Source: Fimbriimonadaceae bacterium
GTDB taxonomy: Bacteria; Armatimonadota; Fimbriimonadia; Fimbriimonadales; Fimbriimonadaceae
Direction: 5' to 3'
DNA: 64,000 nt
NCBI GenBank assembly: GCA_033763535.1
Contig: JANRKI010000029.1
Span: 2,886-66,885, forward strand
Position numbers and translations under genes: made by a program. Below the pieces are notes generated by a model. It had not been told where the DNA came from. It saw nothing but the letters and a program-made list of their open reading frames with translations, and did no database searches. Below are positions 28,732-38,262 of this stretch, in pieces; position 1 is the stretch's first letter; every line of letters begins with the position of its first letter.

Positions 28732-30078
28732 TTAGGCGCGGACCGCGTTGTGGAACGTCGGGGTGTAAGCCGGGTCGGGAAAGACCGTACTGAGCGCACT
28801 GTTCTTGAGGCGCTTCGTGACAATCTCGGCCACGATGTCGCGGTAGTCAATCGTGATTCCGAGCGCATTCCCTTCGAACAAGAGCTCTTGGGCCAGGCCT
28901 GGCCACTGGCTCATAACTTGGCCACCGTTGACGTTATGGCCCAGCGCCATCAGCACGTTGCCGCGCCCGTGGTCGGTGCCGTAGTTGCCGTTCTGCTGTA
29001 CGGTTCGGCCGAATTCCGACACGATTACCACGGTTACTCGGTCCATCACACCGGCCGCGTTGAGGTCGGTGTACAGCGCGCGGAGATTGGTACTGAGGCC
29101 CCACATGCCCATGTACATCGGTCCATAGTATTCGAAGGGTGCCTGGTATTCGTGGGTGTCCCATCCGCCGAAGTCAATATGGATAGCTTCAACGCCGATG
29201 TCGGATCGGATAATCGCGGCGGCCGCCTTGGCGGAGTTCCCAAAGTCGTTGCCCGCACCGTAGGTACCGCCGTTATTCGGCATCGGCTGGTTATAGACGG
29301 CTCCGCCCGCCGGAACGTAGCTTTCGAAGTCCAGGCTTCGCAATAGCTCCACGGTTTGGAAGGTGTTCTCGGCGGCATCGCGTAGCGTGGCGTTGGTCGT
29401 TTGATACGCTTCGCGCAGCCAGGCGACGCGGGCATCTTCGGACTCATTCCGTCCGCCGTATCGAGTGTCGTTCAGATCCGACATCGTCGACGTTTTCGGG
29501 CCGCCTTCAAGCGTAAGGGCGAGGTTACCGCTGAGACCGATCGCGCGAATGAGTGAGCCAGCCTTCATCTCGCCGATCGACGCGAGGTGACGACCGAGCC
29601 AGCCCGTCCAAAGGGACTTGTCCGCCTTCCCGGCTTCCATAAACTGCTGGGCGTCGAAGTGCGATCGGGTGTTATCGGTTAAGCCCGTGCCGTGAACGAT
29701 GAGGAAGTGCCCGGCATCGTACAACTCTTTGAGCGGTTGCATCGCGGGTGGCAGTCCGAAGAATCCGTTCAGATCGATGGCTCGATTCGAGTTATTCGTC
29801 TGATCCGGGCGCGGGACGGCGAGGCTGCTGCGATGGTTGTAATACGCCGCATCTCCGTACGGGACGCACATGGTTAATCCGTCGCAACCGCCGCGCAGGT
29901 AAACGCTGATGATGATGTCGCGATCGCCGGGGGCCATGCGGCCGCGGAAGTCGCTCTTGTAAGTGACGCTCGGGACCCAGGCGGGGGCAATGGAGCGAAG
30001 GGCCGCGTAGCTCATCCGGTCGATGAGGCCGCGTCGGCTCAGGTTTTCGTATTCGTTACATCCTCGATTACGTTGCAT
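28732..30078 (-). CDS. DUF1501 domain protein
   Basis: N-terminal CNEYENLSRRG, SVYLRGGCDGL, RSHFDAQQFME, GGWDTHE, SEFGRT..NGNYGTDHG. Confidence 0.88.
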   Translation of the reverse strand: MQRNRGCNEYENLSRRGLIDRMSYAALRSIAPAWVPSVTYKSDFRGRMAPGDRDIIISVYLRGGCDGLTMCVPYGDAAYYNHRSSLAVPRPDQTNNSNRAIDLNGFFGLPPAMQPLKELYDAGHFLIVHGTGLTDNTRSHFDAQQFMEAGKADKSLWTGWLGRHLASIGEMKAGSLIRAIGLSGNLALTLEGGPKTSTMSDLNDTRYGGRNESEDARVAWLREAYQTTNATLRDAAENTFQTVELLRSLDFESYVPAGGAVYNQPMPNNGGTYGAGNDFGNSAKAAAAIIRSDIGVEAIHIDFGGWDTHEYQAPFEYYGPMYMGMWGLSTNLRALYTDLNAAGVMDRVTVVIVSEFGRTVQQNGNYGTDHGRGNVLMALGHNVNGGQVMSQWPGLAQELLFEGNALGITIDYRDIVAEIVTKRLKNSALSTVFPDPAYTPTFHNAVRA

Positions 30079-30087
30079 ATTCGCTCC

Positions 30088-31590
30088 TTAGTGCATTTGG
30101 AATTCGGGGGACGCGAGGGCCAGGCCGTACGCTTCTCGAATCTGGGTCGTTGACGGGTTTGTGCTCATCGTGGCCGCGAGTTGTTGTCGCCGAAGCGGCG
30201 GCATGTTATTGAAGAAGATGCGGTGATCGATGACCGCCATGACCGCGTCGCGCGTGCGTTGCTTCGACAGGGCAAAGATGTCCATTTGGGCATCCCACAG
30301 CCAGTTCATCGGCAACTGGAACGCGAAATACCATCGGGGCCGAAGGTTGTCCACCCACGCGTTCATCGCATCCGGATAACCGTTTGGCGGTGCCCAGTGG
30401 AACGGGGTTTGCTTCATCTTGTAGAACAGCTCCCAGATGAGTGCGTCCGCATCCGTGACAGATGCCCGCGTGGCGCGCAAGCCGGAAATGACGTAGTGGT
30501 ACGGTCGTTTCAGCTTCGGTTTGGCGTGCTTGGCAAAGCGGAAGTCGCGCAGGATATAGCGCAGGACGCTACGGATATCGCCGTTCGAGTTAAGGAACGT
30601 GTAGACGGCACCATCCAGCAGATTCGCTTGACCTTCGTAACTGACAAACTTGCGGATCAGCTTACGGCAGATGTGCCGGGCCGTACCCGGGTGCAGGGCC
30701 ACGCGCTGCAAGACGAGTTCGCCCTGTTCTTGGCCGCCGCTCGGTATGCGGTCGTCGGCGGTGTCGCCCAGGAAGTAGCCGCCGGTGGTGTCGTGCAAAT
30801 CGGGATAGAACTTAAACTGGCCCCACTTGGTATTGGTGGTTTGGTCCCATGGCCAATCGTAGTAGCCGTCCATGCCCCAGCCGGTAAACACTTTTGTCAG
30901 GGTCTTGACATCGCGTTCGGTGTAGCCACCGTCCACGCCCATGCTGTGCAACTCGAGAAACTCCCGCGGAAAGTTTTCGTTGTTGTAACCAATGGTGTTG
31001 TTCAGGTTGTCCAGATACCACATCAGGTTGACGCTTTTCACCACGTTGGTCAGCAACGTATGGAAGTTGCTCAGGGCGTAGCGTCGGATGGTGCGCAGGT
31101 GGGTAGGCAACACTTCGCGGTTAGAATTGTAGATGTACGTGCTGAAGTGGTCCAGCCAAAACTCGACCATCATCTCGTGCAGTTGGCGCTTGCTGTAGAC
31201 CGCGCGGAAGATCTGACTTTGCACGCATTCCCAGTCGGGGTTTACGCCGTCCGGTAGCTCGCGAAGGCACTTGTACGGTGACAGCTGCAGCGATTGAAAC
31301 TGGCGCAGTTTCTGCTCGCATTCCGTATCGAGGATCGCGTTGGGATCCAGTTGCTCGTTTAAGAAGGCTTCGTGGCCAATTTCGGTGTACCGCGCCATAT
31401 CCTCGGGCGTGGGCGCGTACATGATTCGGTTCAGAAATCCGTACGGGCCAAGGCCGCGGTTTTGGGTCGGGACCGGGAACCGCGATTGCGCCTGAGAAAC
31501 GTTAGCGAGGGCCAACGCGCCGACGCCGGCGGCTCCGGCTTGCAACAGTGCCCGGCGTGTGGTGCCAGCGTGCGATGTGGTGGTGGTCAT
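30088..31590 (-). CDS. DUF1800 domain protein with Tat signal
   Basis: TTRRALLQAGAAGVGALALA twin-arginine signal; QLHEMMVEFWLDHF, YLDNLNN, NENFPREFLELHSMG, YTERDV, SPEFQMH. Confidence 0.88.
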   Translation of the reverse strand: MTTTTSHAGTTRRALLQAGAAGVGALALANVSQAQSRFPVPTQNRGLGPYGFLNRIMYAPTPEDMARYTEIGHEAFLNEQLDPNAILDTECEQKLRQFQSLQLSPYKCLRELPDGVNPDWECVQSQIFRAVYSKRQLHEMMVEFWLDHFSTYIYNSNREVLPTHLRTIRRYALSNFHTLLTNVVKSVNLMWYLDNLNNTIGYNNENFPREFLELHSMGVDGGYTERDVKTLTKVFTGWGMDGYYDWPWDQTTNTKWGQFKFYPDLHDTTGGYFLGDTADDRIPSGGQEQGELVLQRVALHPGTARHICRKLIRKFVSYEGQANLLDGAVYTFLNSNGDIRSVLRYILRDFRFAKHAKPKLKRPYHYVISGLRATRASVTDADALIWELFYKMKQTPFHWAPPNGYPDAMNAWVDNLRPRWYFAFQLPMNWLWDAQMDIFALSKQRTRDAVMAVIDHRIFFNNMPPLRRQQLAATMSTNPSTTQIREAYGLALASPEFQMH

Positions 31591-31686
31591 GCGAACGTGT
31601 TCGCGCCGATGCATCGCTTGCGCGGACATCCGAGACGAACTCTCCCCTACCATTTTTGACGCGTTCACCCGAAAATGCGACGACGC

Positions 31687-31752: not shown

Positions 31753-32775
31753 TTAGGCCGAAAATCGCCACTCGGCAATTTGCACGGCGTTGAGGGCGGC
31801 GCCTTTGCGGAGTTGGTCGCCCGCGATCCACAGGTTCAGCACGCGCGGGTCGTCGCGATCGTGGCGAATTCGACCGACGAGTACATCGTCGCCGTTGGCC
31901 GCCGATCGGGTGGTGGGGAACTGGTTGGCGGCGCGGTCGTCGACCAACCGCAGTCCCGGCGCGCGCTGAATCACGTCGCGGACGGCTTCCACCGCGGGTG
32001 CCGCGTCCGCAAATTCGATGCAAACCGACTCGCAGTGGGCGCGCAGCACGGGTACGCGTACGCAGGTGACGTTGGCCCGCAGGTTTGGCTGGCCCAGGAT
32101 TTTGCGCGTTTCGGCGATGACCTTGGCTTCTTCTTCGTTTTGGCCGTGGTCGTCAATCGCCGTGTTATGGCTAAAGCAGTTGAACGCGTACGGCGGCAGG
32201 CCGTCGGGCCGATCGCCGGCATCGATCCCGGAGCCGTTCGTCAGGTACGCCTGGGTATCCGATTCGAGGTAGCGCATCATGCCCGCGCCGCCTCCGCTGG
32301 CGCTTTGGTACGTGGAGACGACGAGGCGCTCGATGGTCCCGAGCGCGCGGAGGGGGGCGATGGCCATCGTCAGGATGATCGCGGTGCAGTTCGGGACGGA
32401 GTACAGGGTGCGGTCACGCTCGGCCGGACCGAGGTTGATTTCCGGCACGGCCAAGGGCACGTCGGGGTCCATCCGAAACGCGCTGGAGTTGTCGATGACG
32501 ACCGCGCCCGCCGCCCGGGCCGCGGGAACGAGCGCCCGCGATCGCGTGGCACCCGCGCTAAAGAAGGCGATCTCGACGCCGTCGAAGGCATCCGGCGTGG
32601 CCTCGCGCACGGCAATCGCCTCGCCGCGAAAGGTTACGGTGCTGCCTACGGAGCGGGCACTGGCCAGCGCGCGGAGGTCGCGGACCGGGAAATGACGCTG
32701 CTCGAGCACTCGCAGCAATTCGTTACCGACGGCACCCGTCGCCCCGACAATAGCGACTCGCATCCCACGATTCAC
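31753..32775 (-). CDS. asd: Aspartate-semialdehyde dehydrogenase
   Basis: VAIVGATGAVG, VIDNSSAFRM, PNCTA (catalytic Cys), STYQSASGGG, TCVRVPVLRAH, GDQLRKGAALNAVQIAE. Confidence 0.96.
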   Translation of the reverse strand: MNRGMRVAIVGATGAVGNELLRVLEQRHFPVRDLRALASARSVGSTVTFRGEAIAVREATPDAFDGVEIAFFSAGATRSRALVPAARAAGAVVIDNSSAFRMDPDVPLAVPEINLGPAERDRTLYSVPNCTAIILTMAIAPLRALGTIERLVVSTYQSASGGGAGMMRYLESDTQAYLTNGSGIDAGDRPDGLPPYAFNCFSHNTAIDDHGQNEEEAKVIAETRKILGQPNLRANVTCVRVPVLRAHCESVCIEFADAAPAVEAVRDVIQRAPGLRLVDDRAANQFPTTRSAANGDDVLVGRIRHDRDDPRVLNLWIAGDQLRKGAALNAVQIAEWRFSA

Positions 32776-32890
32776 CCCGTAATCTTACTTGCCGAGGCAA
32801 CTTTTCGTGCGAATCAGCGCGGCGCGGTTCACGTTGTACAATGCGCAGACCGCGATGGGGGCATCGGTGCGGAAAGCAGGGGCGGAAGAG

Positions 32891-33784
32891 ATGGAATTGG
32901 GGTTTGACTGCGGGGCGATCGGGCACGCAACGCAGACGCCGGAGTTTCCAGACTTTCGAGAGTTACGCGTTTCACGAATCCAAGGACATGCTTCTAAGAG
33001 CGTGTACGGCGAGTTGCGGTTACCGCGCGATCACTCGGTGCTGGTGTTCAACGAGATGGGGGCGGTGATTGCCCGGCAGACTCCGCGCGGCTCGTTGCTC
33101 CTCATTCCGCCGCAAAGCGTGTTCTATGCGCGATGTGCCCACCTGTACCTTCAGGCCGCGCGCGGCGAGCACCGGGCGATCTTGGTGACGTGGGCGGCCT
33201 CGGCCCTGCCCGTGCTAGAAACGTACGTTCAAACGCGGTTGGTGGCCGAACTGGAACGAGGGATCGTATGTCGGCCGAGCGACCCGGAGTTCAAGCCCGC
33301 CCTGCGGCGGTTGGCCCAGGTGCGCAACGAGTCGTTGCCGCCGGCGATGGGCGAGGTCCTGATGGCGTCGGTGCTGCACGAGGTGCTGGCGCGGCTACTG
33401 CAGGGCGAAAGCGAACTGCAACTCGCGAGCGTGCCGGACGATTTGCCGGAGGCACTGCGCGATCTGATCCGGGCCGTGCGCACCACCCCGTCGGCGCCGT
33501 GGCCGCTGAAGGATGCAGCGGGCCTCGCCGGATACTCGCCATTCCACTTTTCGCGCGTGTTCAAGCAGAGCGTGGGCTACGGTTTTCACGAATACGTGGA
33601 CCGGTGCCGTACGGAGAACGCGGTCCGGCTGCTCATCTCCTCGCCGCAGCCGATCGATGTGATTGCGCAGACCAGCGGATTCGGTACGACGCAAGGCCTG
33701 CGCGAGTCGATCAAAGATTATCTGGGCCTCGTCCCGTCGGAATTGCGCACGCTCACCGAGGCGGGAAGCGAAAATTCTCGCTAA
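32891..33784 (+). CDS. AraC family transcriptional regulator
   Basis: C-terminal double HTH: LKDAAGLAGYSPFHFSRVFKQSVG...IDVIAQTSGFGT; start uncertain (32855 or 32891). Confidence 0.88.
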   Translation: MELGFDCGAIGHATQTPEFPDFRELRVSRIQGHASKSVYGELRLPRDHSVLVFNEMGAVIARQTPRGSLLLIPPQSVFYARCAHLYLQAARGEHRAILVTWAASALPVLETYVQTRLVAELERGIVCRPSDPEFKPALRRLAQVRNESLPPAMGEVLMASVLHEVLARLLQGESELQLASVPDDLPEALRDLIRAVRTTPSAPWPLKDAAGLAGYSPFHFSRVFKQSVGYGFHEYVDRCRTENAVRLLISSPQPIDVIAQTSGFGTTQGLRESIKDYLGLVPSELRTLTEAGSENSR

Positions 33785-33833
33785 ATATCACCGCGAAGGG
33801 CACCGATAACGGAACTTTCGTTCACAAAACGCG

Positions 33834-33876
33834 TATCATTGAGAAACGTTTCGCGAAACGATTCGCGAAACGTTTC
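33834..33876 (+). promoter_or_regulatory. -10 box followed by three tandem LacI-type operator palindromes
   Basis: TATCAT at 33834-33839; GAAACGTTTC at 33843-33852, GAAACGATTC at 33855-33864, GAAACGTTTC at 33867-33876 (12-bp period), immediately upstream of the LacI gene. Confidence 0.8.
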
Positions 33877-33886
33877 GACGGGACCA

Positions 33887-34915
33887 ATGGCGGCCACGAT
33901 CAAAGATATCGCGCGGCGATTAAATATCAGCACTTCCACGGTGAGTTACGCCCTGAATGGCGGACCTCGAACCGTTCCGGAAGAAGTGAAGGAGAGAGTG
34001 CTCTCCGTTGCTCGCGAACTTGGCTATCGTCCCAATCGCATCGCGCGGTCCATGGTGACCCGCCGCACCGCCACCTACGGCGTGGTTCCGACCGAGCCGG
34101 CGATCAACTTGGCGATCAGCCCGTTCTTTCAGATCGTTCTCAACGGCATTCTCAACGCGGCCGAGGACTTCCACCGTGACGTGCTGATCTACACCGGATA
34201 CGACCACCGGGACCTCAAGATTTACACCGATAACCTGCTGGACGGTCGGGCGGACGGACTCATCTTCATCGCACCGCCGCTCGATACGCCGATCTTTCCG
34301 CACATTCGTCGGGCCGGCATCCCGTTCGTCATCACCAATTCGCGGGCGGCAGAAGGCGCGCCGAACATTACGGTCAACAATCGCACCGGCGTGGTCCAGG
34401 CGTTGGAGCATCTGCTGGAGCTTGGCCACCGCAAGATCGGCTTTCTTTACGGAAAGAAGGTCATCGATGACGGCCTGGAGCGATACGAGCAGTTCGTCGA
34501 GTTTTTCCAACGGCGCGGGTTGCCCGTTCGCGAAGACTGGATGTTCGACGGGGACTTCACGCAAAACGGCGGCGAGAGCTGCGCCGGCCCCATCGCCGCC
34601 CTGCGCGACCGTCCAACCGCTTTCTTCTGCGCTAATGACGAAATGGCGGTCGGGCTGATCAACGGCCTGCGCCATCACGGCATCCGCGTGCCGACCGACC
34701 TGAGCGTCGTGGGTTTCGACGACTCCACGATCGCGCACCTCATGCAGCCGCAAATCACCACCGTACGCCAACCGCTCGAAGAGATTGGCGCGGCGGCGGT
34801 ACACGCGCTGCAGGCCTTGATCGAGGGTCGAGAAGCGGCCCCAAGACAGTTTTCCACCCGGCTCGTAGTTAGAGCAAGTTCCGAACGTCCACTGGAGGAC
34901 ACCAAAAAATCATGA
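33887..34915 (+). CDS. LacI family transcriptional regulator
   Basis: [71 protein letters not shown]. Confidence 0.96.
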
Positions 34916-35778
34916 AACGAGCGCAACGCGCATTCACTCTCATTGAACTCCTCGTCGTGATCGCCATCATCGCGATCCTCGCCGCTATCCTCTTCCCGGT
35001 TTTCGCCGAAGCGAAGGCCGCGGCCAAGAACTCGAAGACGGTCAGCAATCTCAAGCAGATCGGTACTGCGTTCGTGCTGTACCAAGCCGACTACGACGAC
35101 ACCTACCAAATGTCGGGCACGATGAACGGCAACGGCGCCTCTTGGGGCACCGGTGCTTGCTCGGCCGCAACTTTCGGTTGCCCGGGCTGGGACACGGTCA
35201 TGTTCCCGTACATGAAGAATTTCGAACTGTTCCGTTCGGACTTCGACCGCGTTCCGACCGGCTTCTCGCCGAACTGGGGCCAAGTCAAGAAGAGCTTCCG
35301 CGTCGCCGGTAACGTCGTTCGCGGTTGGGCGGGCGTCAACACCTGGGACGGCCAAGACTACGGTTGGCAAGGCACGAACGCCACGAGCATCCCGCTTCCG
35401 GCGGATACGATCGTGGTGACCGAGCAACGCAACCCGGCGGTCTACGACTGCACCTGGTGGCCGGGCGCATGGCTGTGGGAGTGCAACGTGTGGTGGAACC
35501 GCTCGTCGAACACCCTGTCGAACCTCGACCCGCTCGCGTGGGGCACGGAAGCTCGACAAACCCACCGCTACACCTCGGGCATCGACTTCGCTCGCGCCCA
35601 ACGCGCCAACTACCTGTACGCGGATAGCCACGTGGGCAATCGCGGCGTCGGCTTCATCTTCCCGGGCTACCAACAACGCCTGAACATGAACTCGCCGGTC
35701 GACCCGACCGTGCGCGGTGTGTGTCTGGACGGCGATCCGTTCCGACCGAACACCAACGACTGTCTGCTCCCGCAGTAA
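34912..35778 (+). CDS. Prepilin-type N-terminal cleavage/methylation domain protein (DUF1559-like)
   Basis: MKRAQRA|[28 protein letters not shown]...[19 protein letters not shown]; C-terminal [10 protein letters not shown]; ATGA overlap with the LacI stop. Confidence 0.92.
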
Positions 35779-35785
35779 GACCGAT

Positions 35786-35813
35786 TGCCGGTGACGCCTC
35801 GGCGTCACCGGCA
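35786..35813 (+). other. Perfect intercistronic hairpin
   Basis: TGCCGGTGACGCC-TC-GGCGTCACCGGCA between the prepilin gene and the small ORF; no U-tract. Confidence 0.75.
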
Positions 35814-35827
35814 CCCCCTTCCAACCG

Positions 35828-36091
35828 ATGAAAAAACCGATTCCAGTCCCGGCCATTATTGGGGCCGTCGTTGTCGTACTCGCGGTCGTCGGGTACTTCT
35901 TCACCCGACAAGATGGCGGTGCGGAATTTCCGAAGCCGAAAACCTCGAACGTCATCCCGCGCTACGTCTGGGACGGCATGAGCCCGGCGATGCAAAAGCA
36001 GATGAAGGATCAGGGCTACACCGTTGGCGACGTGAAGCCAGAAGGCCCGAAGGGCATTCCCGGGGCGGGCGACGCGCCGAAGGCTCCCTAA
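35828..36091 (+). CDS. Small single-TM Pro/Gly-rich protein (prepilin-gene partner)
   Basis: MKKPIPVPAIIGAVVVVLAVVGYFF N-terminal TM, low-complexity tail; coding-like codon usage. Confidence 0.75.
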   Translation: MKKPIPVPAIIGAVVVVLAVVGYFFTRQDGGAEFPKPKTSNVIPRYVWDGMSPAMQKQMKDQGYTVGDVKPEGPKGIPGAGDAPKAP

Positions 36092-36122
36092 CCCGTTTTC
36101 ACTCCGCGTTCACGAGCATTTC

Positions 36123-36157
36123 GGCCGGACTGCCCCTGCGCAGGACCGGCCTTTTTT
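36123..36157 (+). terminator. Rho-independent terminator of the LacI-prepilin operon
   Basis: GGCCGG...CCGGCC stem followed by TTTTTT, between the convergent ends at 36091 and 36163. Confidence 0.65.
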
Positions 36158-36162
36158 GTCCT

Positions 36163-38262
36163 TCACCGCAAGAACGCTTCGTGCAGACCGGCATCGACCG
36201 CCAATACCTGGCCCGTGGTGAGCGCGAACCGGTCGGAGGCAAGCGCGTAAAGGGCGTCGGCGACGGCCGAGGGCGTGACCGGACGCTTCAGCAACGTGCG
36301 CTGGGCGTAGAACTCGGCCAAACGATCCCGCAGCTCCTCGTCCGACATCTCGGGCGCGTGCGGAATGTTGTACTTGGCCAACGACGACAGGACCCGGTCG
36401 CGCGGGAACATCTGTGACCCGGCAACCACGGTCGCCGGAGCCACCGCGTTCACACGGATGCTCGGCGCGAACTCCACCGCGAGCTCTCGCACGAGGTGGT
36501 TGACCGCCGCCTTGCTCGTGTCGTACGCCAGAGAGCCTTTCTTCGCGACCACCGCGTTGGCGCTACTCACCAGCACGATGCTGCCCGGCAGGCCCTGATC
36601 TCGCATGAGGCGGGCGGATTCTTCCGCGACGATCGCGGTGCCGACGAGGTTGATCTCGTACGTCTTGGTCCAGAGCGCGTCATCAAGGTGACCGGTGGCG
36701 TCGGGCGGAAAGAATACGGCGGCCAGATTCACCACGGTGTCGAGCCCGCCCCAGCGTCGCGCGACGGCATCCAGCGCGGCGCGTACCGATTCGCGCTTCG
36801 TGATGTCCAGCGTCACGCCCATCACGCGGTCGGGGTCCAACGCGGCAAACTTCGCGACGGCCGCGTCGACGAGGTCCGACTTCAGGTCCGCGATCGCCAC
36901 GGCGGCGTCTTGCGCCAGCAGCCGTTCGATGGTCGCCCAGCCGATACCCGGCCCGGCGCCGATGACGAGGGCGATTTTGCGCGCCATTTCGCGTTCCGGC
37001 GGCATCCGGCGGAGCTTGGCTTCTTCGAGCAGCCAATACTCAATGTTGAAGGCCTCTTGCTCGGGAAGGGCGGTATAGCGCGAGATCGTCTCGGCTCCCC
37101 GCATCACGGCGACAGCGTTTCGGTAGAACTCGCCGGTGACGCGGGCTTCCTTCGCGTTCTTGTTGAATGCGATCATGCCGACTTCTGGAATCAGGACCAC
37201 GCTCGGGTTCGGATTCCGCATCGCGGGACTATCCGCGTGGCGGCACCGATCGTAGTACGCCGCGTATCCGGCTCGAAACTCGGCGAGGGCCGCGTCGACA
37301 TCCGCTTCCGTTGCGTCGGGTTGCAGCACCATCGGCCGAATCTTCGTACGGAGGAAGTGATCGGGACAGCTGGTGCCCAGCGCGGTCAGCGCACCCGCTT
37401 TCTCACGGGCGAGAAAATCGAGCACGGCCTCCGAGCGATCCACATTTGCGATGAGCGGCTTGCCCTCGAAGGCGGTCTTGCCCCGGAGCATTGGAAGCAA
37501 TCGGCGCAGGACGGCGTCTTGGTCTTCCGGTGATCGCGCCACGGCGGTCCGCACGATCGGGCCGAATGGATGGGTGGTTTCGCGGGCGGCCAAGAACTCG
37601 ACCGCGTCATTGATCAGTTCAATGGTCAGCGCGTAGGCGGATTCCCAATCGTTGGCCCAGCAAATGAACCCGTGGCTGCCCATCATCGCGCCGACCGCGT
37701 GGGGGTTCGCGCGCAGGCCGTCGCGCAGCATCAGCCCGAGTTCGAACCCCGGTCGCTTCCACGGGAGCCAAAACATCCGGTCGCCGTAGCATTCCGCGGT
37801 GAGTTGCTCGCCGTGCTCGGCGGCGGCGATGGCGATCACAGCGTCGCTGTGCATGTGCGAGACGGCGGGGAACGGCACGTAGGCATGCAACGGCGTGTCG
37901 ATGCTGGGCGCGGCCGGGTTCATGTTGAACGTCGCCATGGCGTACAGCGGCACCAGCGCATCTTCCGCGACCCCGGCGTCGTACCGGGCCTCCAGAGCGA
38001 GCAGCTTGGCCTGGTACAGCGAGGCGAAGTTCGCGCGCTTGGCACTGCCGAGATCGCCGCCGGACGCCTTAACCCAGAGCACCTCCACCGATTCGCCGGT
38101 GAGTGGGTCGGTCGCCGCGACCTTGAGGCTTGTATTGCCGCCGCCGAAATTGGTGACGCGCGGGTCGGAGCCCAGCAGGTTCGACGCGTAAACAAGCTGG
38201 TCCACAGCGTCTTGCGGAGCGTCTTCGGGGCGCCACAGCGAGGGCAAACGGTCGGCCATCAT
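36163..38262 (-). CDS. Bifunctional rhamnulose-1-phosphate aldolase / short-chain dehydrogenase (RhaEW-like)
   Basis: LLGSDPRVTNFGGGNTSLK, PSIDTPLHA, HMHSDA, GTSCPDHFLRTKI, EYWLLEEAKL, SDR with YDTSKAA. Confidence 0.92.
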   Translation of the reverse strand: MMADRLPSLWRPEDAPQDAVDQLVYASNLLGSDPRVTNFGGGNTSLKVAATDPLTGESVEVLWVKASGGDLGSAKRANFASLYQAKLLALEARYDAGVAEDALVPLYAMATFNMNPAAPSIDTPLHAYVPFPAVSHMHSDAVIAIAAAEHGEQLTAECYGDRMFWLPWKRPGFELGLMLRDGLRANPHAVGAMMGSHGFICWANDWESAYALTIELINDAVEFLAARETTHPFGPIVRTAVARSPEDQDAVLRRLLPMLRGKTAFEGKPLIANVDRSEAVLDFLAREKAGALTALGTSCPDHFLRTKIRPMVLQPDATEADVDAALAEFRAGYAAYYDRCRHADSPAMRNPNPSVVLIPEVGMIAFNKNAKEARVTGEFYRNAVAVMRGAETISRYTALPEQEAFNIEYWLLEEAKLRRMPPEREMARKIALVIGAGPGIGWATIERLLAQDAAVAIADLKSDLVDAAVAKFAALDPDRVMGVTLDITKRESVRAALDAVARRWGGLDTVVNLAAVFFPPDATGHLDDALWTKTYEINLVGTAIVAEESARLMRDQGLPGSIVLVSSANAVVAKKGSLAYDTSKAAVNHLVRELAVEFAPSIRVNAVAPATVVAGSQMFPRDRVLSSLAKYNIPHAPEMSDEELRDRLAEFYAQRTLLKRPVTPSAVADALYALASDRFALTTGQVLAVDAGLHEAFLR

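Follow-up and report, generated by a model that had tools for sequence, protein, structure and literature searches.

We analyzed a 64,000-nt window of the genome of a Fimbriimonadaceae bacterium (the whole stretch of DNA under study, C29:2886-66885 of a 2.8-Mb assembly in 117 contigs, labeled G000 in our genome set) and describe here an operon at 33.84-36.16 kb of this window that encodes a LacI-family repressor, a type IV pilin-like protein and a small membrane-anchored protein. The host is an Armatimonadota bacterium of soil or freshwater. Tentatively, and with a little less than even confidence, we interpret this self-repressed operon as the source of a β-1,3-glucan-induced envelope component for glycan capture; we infer that the glycan is bound by the head of the pilin-like protein. 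Coordinates refer to the window unless another contig (C numbers) or an orthologous locus (L numbers) is named.

The first gene of the operon (33887-34915, forward strand) encodes the LacI-family repressor (PF00356, 53 bits; PF13377, 143 bits), with E-values of 2.5e-14 for the LacI helix-turn-helix (HTH) domain and 1.7e-41 for Peripla_BP_3 in the profile scan. Its open reading frame (ORF) opens at 33839, and the start conserved in relatives is the ATG at 33887, matching the MAATI of the orthologs. The stop codon TGA (34913-34915) overlaps the ATG of the pilin-like gene at 34912 in an ATGA junction. This second gene (34912-35778, forward strand) encodes a prepilin-type protein of 288 aa (N_methyl PF07963, 1.9e-9; TIGR02532, 5.4e-8) and is followed by an intercistronic GC-rich hairpin with a 12-bp perfect stem and no U-tract (35786-35813, forward strand; -26.9 kcal/mol, z -6.35). 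The third gene (35828-36091, forward strand) encodes the 87-aa membrane-anchored partner, which has a single N-terminal hydrophobic transmembrane (TM) helix and a Pro/Gly-rich tail. An intrinsic terminator, a bipartite hairpin plus U6, closes the operon (36123-36157, forward strand; -19.6 kcal/mol, z -2.3); it was identified by direct folding, and its long loop escapes the terminator scan. A ribosome-binding site, the ATGA overlap, the intercistronic hairpin and the terminator all speak for an operon. A scan of 32700-36300 for a sigma-70 consensus promoter found none. An earlier sequence-only reading of the window had described this layout, with an AraC gene upstream and a gene for a rhamnulose-1-phosphate aldolase/short-chain dehydrogenase/reductase (SDR) converging from the other side, and every element of it was confirmed.

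An operator array is located between the AraC and LacI genes (33843-33876, forward strand) and comprises three copies phased at 12 bp, GAAACGTTTC / GAAACGATTC / GAAACGTTTC. The operator is the CG-centered palindrome GAAACGTTTC, and the array immediately follows a -10-like TATCAT (33834-33839), leaving 10 nt to the LacI start. Five exact copies are present in the 2.8-Mb genome, compared with ~1.2 expected from base composition. For comparison, 12 other orthologous loci were read; the related loci come from Fimbriimonadales/Fimbriimonadaceae metagenome-assembled genomes of Armatimonadota. In each of the seven orthologous loci examined for it, and in L032, this palindrome immediately precedes the LacI start; in L021, L022 and L023, where there is no adjacent LacI, it precedes the pilin-like gene by ~150 nt. 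Counted over all 13 orthologous loci, the operator is always found ahead of either LacI or the pilin-like gene. As a prediction from sequence, repression of the operon by its own LacI is strongly supported.

Additional operator copies in the relatives precede genes for glycoside hydrolases (GH) of family GH158 (L026, L028, L029) and GH16 (L030), as well as PEP-CTERM-type genes located downstream. The ORF called in L028 and L030 takes in the operator with its first codons ('LLRNVSQ'). When a position weight matrix (PWM) built from 14 sites in relatives was applied to the studied genome, the top scores were those of a site at C7:65018 and of the operon's own sites. The C7 site lies 12 nt before the GGAGG/GTG start of an unlinked GH158 homolog (C7:65048-66250), which shares 41-47% identity with the relatives' glycosidase, matches the structures 9oro (2.5e-93) and BuGH158 (6pal, 3.3e-55) in PDB, and retains the ..GNE.. 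and ..TEYG.. catalytic motifs. GH158 is a family of endo-β-1,3-glucanases that in Bacteroides sits together with GH16_3 and an exo-β-glucosidase in a β-1,3-glucan polysaccharide utilization locus (PMC7157763). Upstream of the homologs of the relatives' ATP-binding cassette (ABC) importer (C38) and GH1 (C37) genes, searches allowing up to one mismatch, or a PWM score of at least 17, returned no operator. The shared operator and synteny thus place the repressor, the pilin-like/small pair and the β-1,3-glucanase in one regulon, the members of which are scattered in this genome. The predicted membership of the trio in a β-1,3-glucan utilization regulon is well supported; in this genome, one extra-operonic site speaks for the regulon.

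The order LacI, pilin-like gene, small TM gene (82-109 aa) is kept in L001, L024, L025, L026/L027, L028/L029, L030 and L031. The trio is intact in all eight LacI-bearing loci that were read on both sides, LacI orthologs with 47-56% identity hold the same position, and three more loci (L021, L022, L023) have no adjacent LacI. The earlier proposal of a module led by a sugar regulator and composed of a pilin-like protein and a small membrane partner is supported. In L028, L029 and L030, whose pilin-like proteins are 48-51% orthologs, a divergent GH158 gene is followed by the series LacI, pilin-like, small, SBP_bac_1/permease fusion, permease and GH1, to which L030 adds GH16; by family model, the GH158 product in these loci is a GH2_C-like glycosidase. 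The same glycosidase adjoins LacI in L024 and L026, and in L022 (genome G018) LacI is gone and the operon consists of the operator, the pilin-like gene, the small gene and GH158. In the relatives, the gene for the fusion of a solute-binding protein (SBP) with a permease stands directly after the pilin/small pair. Such SBP_bac_1/8 and BPD_transp_1 fusions of 799-825 aa are encoded at L028:8210-10609, L030:8087-10564, C38:4434-6845 and C29:67876-70233, the last just past the end of the window.

The pilin-like protein begins with the leader MKRAQRA and continues as mature FTLIE..., which constitutes a class III signal peptide with Glu5 present. The prepilin motif scores above the cut-offs of both PF07963 (37.2 bits; cut-off 21.2) and TIGR02532 (32.4 bits; cut-off 16.3). 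Behind an N-terminal helix of ~50 residues stands a head of ~230 aa with a distinctive composition: 13 Trp residues make up 5.1% of the head versus 1.3% in the genome's long ORFs, Cys reaches 2.4% versus 0.7%, and Asn 7.9% versus 3.0%. The richness of the variable domain in Trp and Cys, as originally described, is therefore real for both residues. The six Cys residues of the head form three conserved pairs by position (C83/C90, C180/C191, C271/C284), of which C271 and C284 are invariant in an 82-sequence alignment and mark the C-terminal disulfide region expected of pilins; W78, W93, W145, W183 and W194 are 84-95% conserved in the ortholog alignment. We found 74 full-length orthologs at 41-94% identity. 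Most of them carry a C-terminal ...FADGH... motif, which in the studied copy reads YADSH (DSH, not DGH).

An AlphaFold2 model based on 82 sequences (predicted local distance difference test score 94.6, predicted template modeling score 0.88) comprises a helix at residues 10-60 and a mixed α/β head. The sole match of a Foldseek search against PDB is the helix of Neisseria PilE (E = 0.69), and in a profile search of PDB sequences the matches are confined to N-terminal helices (Geobacter PilA-N, 2.6e-13; Thermus/Myxococcus PilA; GspG). The fold of the head is thus uninformative on function, since the PDB searches returned only the pilin N-terminal helix. The sequence-only reading had labeled the protein a DUF1559 prepilin. 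The prepilin part of this label stands, with the motif above its cut-offs, while membership in DUF1559 (PF07596) was rejected: the match has 17.8 bits, below the cut-off of 23.3, and covers only positions 3-66 of the 268-position profile. Six PF07596 matches reach the cut-off genome-wide, three alone and three only when combined with neighbors in frame. Membership in the H-X9-DG family (TIGR04294) was likewise rejected, with no match in the query and matches in three of 82 orthologs, and so was membership in the type II secretion system (T2SS) family GspG (TIGR01710, 34.2 bits versus a cut-off of 88.85, N-terminal 56 residues only). These sequence features strongly support the prediction of a pilin-type product that is extracytoplasmic and has a conserved partner.

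The protein belongs to a large family of paralogs. A motif scan of the 2.8-Mb genome identified 71 prepilin-type ORFs, of which 56 share a near-invariant 24-residue N-terminus and were classified as pilin-like paralogs; these and the other genome-wide gene counts given below rest on our own ORF heuristics. The invariance of the N-terminal helix in all paralogs suggests co-assembly in one filament. It would suit an inducible adhesin, that is, a specialized, minor or tip pilin that is built into type IV pili on sensing β-glucan fragments and attaches the cell to surfaces rich in β-1,3-glucan (the walls of fungi or algae, for example) without taking part in uptake. The pilin architecture with its invariant C271-C284 loop and the aromatic-rich head agree with such a function, and pili-like fibers at the crateriform structures of planctomycetes bind dextran (PMC5394234). 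We nevertheless regard an adhesin as quite unlikely: in the deeper orthologs the pilin-like gene shares its transcript with genes for an ABC importer and a GH1 of cytoplasmic type, a sign of nutrient acquisition, and at 288 aa the protein exceeds the pilins of the canonical pilus cluster (124-148 aa).

The assembly machinery is encoded elsewhere in the genome, in agreement with the earlier statement that the operon has no pilus ATPase or secretin. We identified one prepilin peptidase gene (Peptidase_A24, C20:27919-28242), located directly upstream of a pilin-like paralog, as well as eight T2SSE-family ATPases (four GspE/PilB-type and four PilT-type) and two secretins; the operon itself contains none of the peptidase, ATPase or secretin genes, and no gsp genes are present in the window region. 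The TonB-dependent receptor family (PF00593) has no match in the whole genome, and there are no SusC/SusD-type genes in the orthologous loci read.

The presence of several GspE-type ATPases and two secretins would also suit another role, in which the pilin-like protein is an inducible adaptor of a T2SS-like pseudopilus that, together with its small partner, pushes the co-regulated GH158 and GH16 across the outer membrane. The N-terminus resembles those of GspG and other pseudopilins (TIGR01710, 2.2e-8), and both GspG and Geobacter PilA-N are among the PDB profile matches. In Geobacter, PilA-N and a partner encoded by a separate gene build a pseudopilus for secretion. Moreover, the pilin-like and small genes of L022 are co-operonic with a signal-peptide-bearing GH158, and the GH158 proteins of L028 and L030 bear a signal peptide or lipobox. 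In the studied genome, however, no in-frame extension of the operator-controlled GH158 supplies a signal peptide; the detected regulon therefore holds no secreted enzyme, which weakens the case for a secretion adaptor here. In addition, known T2SS pseudopilins are generic, encoded in gsp clusters and not duplicated per substrate, whereas here 56 paralogs are scattered outside the machinery clusters, and the GspG model scores 34 bits, far under its cut-off. We consider a role in secretion unlikely. With respect to GH158 itself, the C7 copy has lost the signal peptide or lipobox carried by its orthologs in L022, L028 and L030.

The 87-aa protein is kept in all eight loci aligned and shares 32-59% identity across seven orthologous loci, with a conserved segment after the TM helix (EFPxPK..VIPRYVWD.M.P.M...MK.QGY.VGDV). 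Because of this conservation, we consider the ORF a real gene. It has zero matches in Pfam or NCBIfam. At the intergenic place of the 35786-35813 hairpin, all six orthologous loci folded (L001, L024, L025, L026, L028, L031) also form a hairpin, the sequence of which is unrelated. A conserved element for transcript processing, stability or attenuation that sets the ratio of pilin-like protein to partner is suggested by this.

For a β-1,3-glucan capture component, we propose the following sequence of events. Without inducer, the repressor would occupy the three phased operators over the transcription start, and β-gluco-oligosaccharides of laminaribiose type would free it from them. The prepilin peptidase is predicted to cut the pilin-like protein before Phe8, and the invariant hydrophobic helix would then keep the protein in the envelope, whether as an inner-membrane protein or as part of a short pseudopilus built by the genome's type IV filament machinery. 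The Trp-rich, disulfide-bonded head may bind β-1,3-gluco-oligosaccharides and aid their capture or their hand-over to an ABC importer, with the 87-aa protein acting as a putative membrane-tethered partner. The pilin-like protein would in this way fill the place of the Bacteroides SusC/SusD and surface glycan-binding proteins (SGBPs) in a host without TonB-dependent transporters.

The arrangement recurs across the genome. A tblastn search with the LacI protein returned 13 genomic loci, of which ten immediately precede a pilin-like paralog in the same orientation (C29, C17, C87 (two), C81 (two), C100, C51, C73 and C104), compared with ~0.3 of 13 expected by chance (56 pilin-like genes among ~2,600). 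The upstream regulators on C104, C47, C59 and C105 are hybrids of a GntR-type HTH and Peripla_BP_3, and the regulator-led modules, with a LacI or a GntR/sugar-binding regulator, total 13. For 27 of the 54 paralogs tested, the next 200 nt downstream contain the start of a small ORF of 35-175 aa that has a hydrophobic segment at its N-terminus, versus 37 of 594 random long ORFs (~6%) in the control; among these 27 small ORFs, 21 have a lipobox and six are of the TM type like the 87-aa protein. These counts bear out the order LacI, pilin-like gene, small ORF as a genome-wide pattern, which the sequence-only reading had proposed to look for. Pilin-like genes were found in all 30 relatives searched (~20 to more than 78 each), and in G013, a complete genome of the same genus, half of the 12 LacI HTH matches directly precede a pilin-like match.

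Other copies of the module adjoin different glycoside hydrolases. Of the 13 regulator-led modules, six or more have a distinct GH-type gene at their flank: a PF10091 'glycoamylase' on C17, a rhamnosidase-like six-hairpin protein (918 aa) on C81, a β-helix protein on C100, GHL6/GH42M on C73, GH76 on C47 and a GH51-type arabinofuranosidase on C105. The modules thus seem each to have a sugar of their own. In the C81 module (C81:1275-6085), where LacI and pilin-like genes stand beside the 918-aa protein, the pilin-like gene is apparently frameshifted, with its FADGH end in another frame. At C90:13000-15500, a rhamnulokinase-like gene (TIGR02627, 260 bits, below the cut-off) directly precedes a pilin-like gene, behind which stands a lipoprotein gene.

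We can speculate further that the pilin-like expansions of Armatimonadota are banks of ligand-specific nutrient receptors with a pilin fold, each with a head of as yet unsolved fold and its own micro-protein and many with their own sugar sensor, that dock by the invariant helix on one shared type IV filament machine. They would then represent a bacterial counterpart of the archaeal bindosome that replaces SusC/D- or TonB-dependent glycan capture, and the studied copy would be the β-1,3-glucan receptor. This generalization is possible but doubtful.

The pairing of 13 modules with one-component sugar regulators, together with the close coupling of LacI translation to that of the pilin-like gene in most orthologs, could also be read as signaling, with a membrane-bound pilin-like protein that detects a glycan outside the cytoplasm and modulates LacI, its co-translated neighbor, for example by membrane sequestration. 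We find this very improbable, as the cleaved protein would have essentially no cytoplasmic part to contact LacI and the regulators have an effector-binding domain of their own. Furthermore, three genomes keep the operator and the pilin/small genes without an adjacent LacI, and pilin-like genes are present in a genome without any LacI.

Several observations weigh against a glycan-capture role of the operon as we propose it. The head resembles no known carbohydrate-binding or solute-binding fold in the Pfam/NCBIfam, PDB profile and Foldseek searches. No transporter is located beside the trio in this genome, and in the relatives a binding domain is already fused to the ABC importer. Position -1 of the cleavage site is occupied by Ala where Gly would be canonical; 46 of the 56 paralogs share this Ala, as do two pilins from the canonical pilus cluster (C7). 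Two of the exact operator copies are inside ORFs (C47:27986-28003 and C19:80707-80724), where both encode 'ETFL', and may be due to chance or may be internal operators; they were not counted as regulon members. The C47 18-mer, TTGCGAAACGTTTCTCAA, is identical to the GH158 operator and belongs to an ORF of 169 aa that is closely followed by an Lgt-like (prolipoprotein diacylglyceryl transferase) gene, and the C19 copy sits in a 72-aa ORF. G022, a genome from another family of the same order, has ~20 pilin-like genes and zero LacI HTH matches. The coupling to a regulator is therefore not universal, and the pilin-like genes of G022 must be controlled differently. Finally, in a comparison of 12 modules the divergence of the regulators was not matched by that of the pilin heads (Mantel r = 0.14, with 638 of 5000 permutations as high). 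Co-divergence was thus rejected, only the tandem pair on C87 having been duplicated as a unit, and the arrangement seems to have been assembled repeatedly rather than block-copied.

The genes on either side of the operon had suggested another substrate. The AraC-family regulator gene (32891-33784, forward strand; HTH_18, 1.4e-16, and HTH_AraC) was judged to be outside the conserved module, and the convergent gene for the bifunctional rhamnulose-1-phosphate aldolase/SDR, RhaD (36163-38262, reverse strand; NF006189, 903 bits versus a cut-off of 634), was judged unrelated to the operon. From these neighbors the sequence-only reading had drawn a link to rhamnose, with the trio as a capture unit for rhamnose or rhamnogalacturonan under the control of AraC and LacI and alongside the aldolase. 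Both genes are indeed physically adjacent here, AraC is also present in the 94%-identity relative L032, and rhamnose-linked pilin-like genes occur elsewhere in the genome (C90 and C81). Among the other orthologous loci, however, AraC is found beside the trio in L032 only, where the order is AraC, LacI, pilin and the contig stops at the pilin gene, leaving the downstream side unread; RhaD adjoins the trio in none of the 12 wherever the downstream flank is readable, which it is not in L032. Both genes are missing beside the trio in the loci at 81% identity or less. No operator copy was found near RhaD by exact and PWM searches of the genome, and operator and synteny together indicate GH158, GH16, the ABC importer and GH1 instead. 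The comparison with RhaS/RhaR-type control fails as well, as the AraC protein matches no RhaS/RhaR model. Since AraC and RhaD are not conserved beside the trio and the RhaS/RhaR match is lacking, we attribute the rhamnose link to an accident of position; it is largely refuted, and we give it scarcely any credence. Beyond the aldolase/SDR gene, the next gene encodes FtsZ (from 38321). On the other side, a DUF1501/DUF1800 pair with asd (28732-31668) is also found near the trio in L001 and L032 in different order and orientation, so that this block is kept near the trio and rearranged.

In Planctomycetota, Verrucomicrobiota and Armatimonadota, few paralogous families that lack a function are as large as the prepilin-type proteins similar to DUF1559 and H-X9-DG. 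The studied locus supplies one member of such a family with a candidate ligand class, β-1,3-gluco-oligosaccharides, with a defined operator and repressor, and with a conserved partner. Its value lies in naming a specific candidate ligand class for type IV pilin-like proteins that would serve as glycan-specific, repressor-controlled modules. If the proposed role is true, it would show a route of polysaccharide capture for diderms without TonB-dependent SusC/D systems, and a nutritional role would join those of the type IV filament superfamily in bacteria. Our full-text literature searches found no description of regulator-coupled pilin-like modules and no function for DUF1559-type proteins, nor any published report of the coupling of such proteins to LacI/GntR, to a small partner gene or to a defined glycan regulon.

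The pilin-like protein shares with type IV pilins and pseudopilins (PilA/PilE, GspG) the class III signal peptide, Glu5, the long N-terminal helix and the C-terminal disulfide. As in the Geobacter PilA-N/PilA-C pair, a gene for a small, separately encoded, envelope-anchored partner is located directly downstream. It differs from these proteins in its ~230-aa head without a structural match, its location outside a pilus or gsp cluster, its control by a sugar repressor, its place in a set of 56 paralogs and the Ala at -1. The DUF1559 (PF07596, 'SBP_bac_10') and H-X9-DG families of Planctomycetota, Verrucomicrobiota and Lentisphaerota, the function of which was unknown as late as 2023 (PMC10632474), have in common with it the prepilin N-terminus, a massive expansion per genome, a short conserved segment after the helix and, in most orthologs, a C-terminal ...ADGH-type motif. 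The query and most of its paralogs nevertheless fall below the Pfam cut-off and match only positions 2-66 of the 268 in the profile.

The archaeal bindosome, in which Sulfolobus sugar-binding proteins with class III signal peptides are assembled by the Bas system (PMC3047682), is similar in its link to nutrient acquisition, its pilin-like signal peptides, sugar ABC transporters, prepilin-type peptidase and assembly proteins like those of type IV filaments. The archaeal proteins, however, have ordinary SBP folds, whereas the head described here matches no SBP family or solved fold. Moreover, there are no adjacent Bas-like genes, the host is a bacterium with secretins, and only the loci of the 48-51% orthologs have an ABC importer behind the trio. 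The dextran-binding fibers of planctomycetes likewise tie a pilin- or fiber-type envelope structure to polysaccharide capture in a diderm without SusC/D-type uptake; their subunits are not tied to specific genes, whereas here the evidence comes from the genome alone and points to specific genes and a specific glycan.

The closest functional comparison is provided by the 1,3-β-glucan utilization locus (1,3GUL) of Bacteroides, which consists of a SusC-like TonB-dependent transporter, a SusD-like SGBP-A, an SGBP-B, GH16_3, GH158 and GH3 enzymes, and a regulator of the hybrid two-component system (HTCS) type (PMC7157763). Both systems combine GH16 and GH158 endo-glucanases with an exo-β-glucosidase and one substrate-responsive regulator, and in both, non-catalytic parts of low sequence conservation are dedicated to the same glycan. 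The Armatimonadota system differs in having no TonB-dependent transporter or SusD, a LacI in place of the HTCS, ABC import, and GH1 instead of GH3; in the studied genome its genes are scattered and joined by the operator alone, and the pilin-like protein and its micro-protein fill a slot otherwise unassigned. The earlier idea of a functional analog of SusD-type binding proteins fits with the lack of a TonB-dependent receptor and with an enzyme set like that of the Bacteroides β-1,3-glucan locus (PMC7157763). By this comparison, all enzymatic and regulatory roles of the 1,3GUL are matched, and the pilin-like/small pair, alone among the conserved genes in having no assigned role, would stand in the place of SusC, SusD and SGBP-B.

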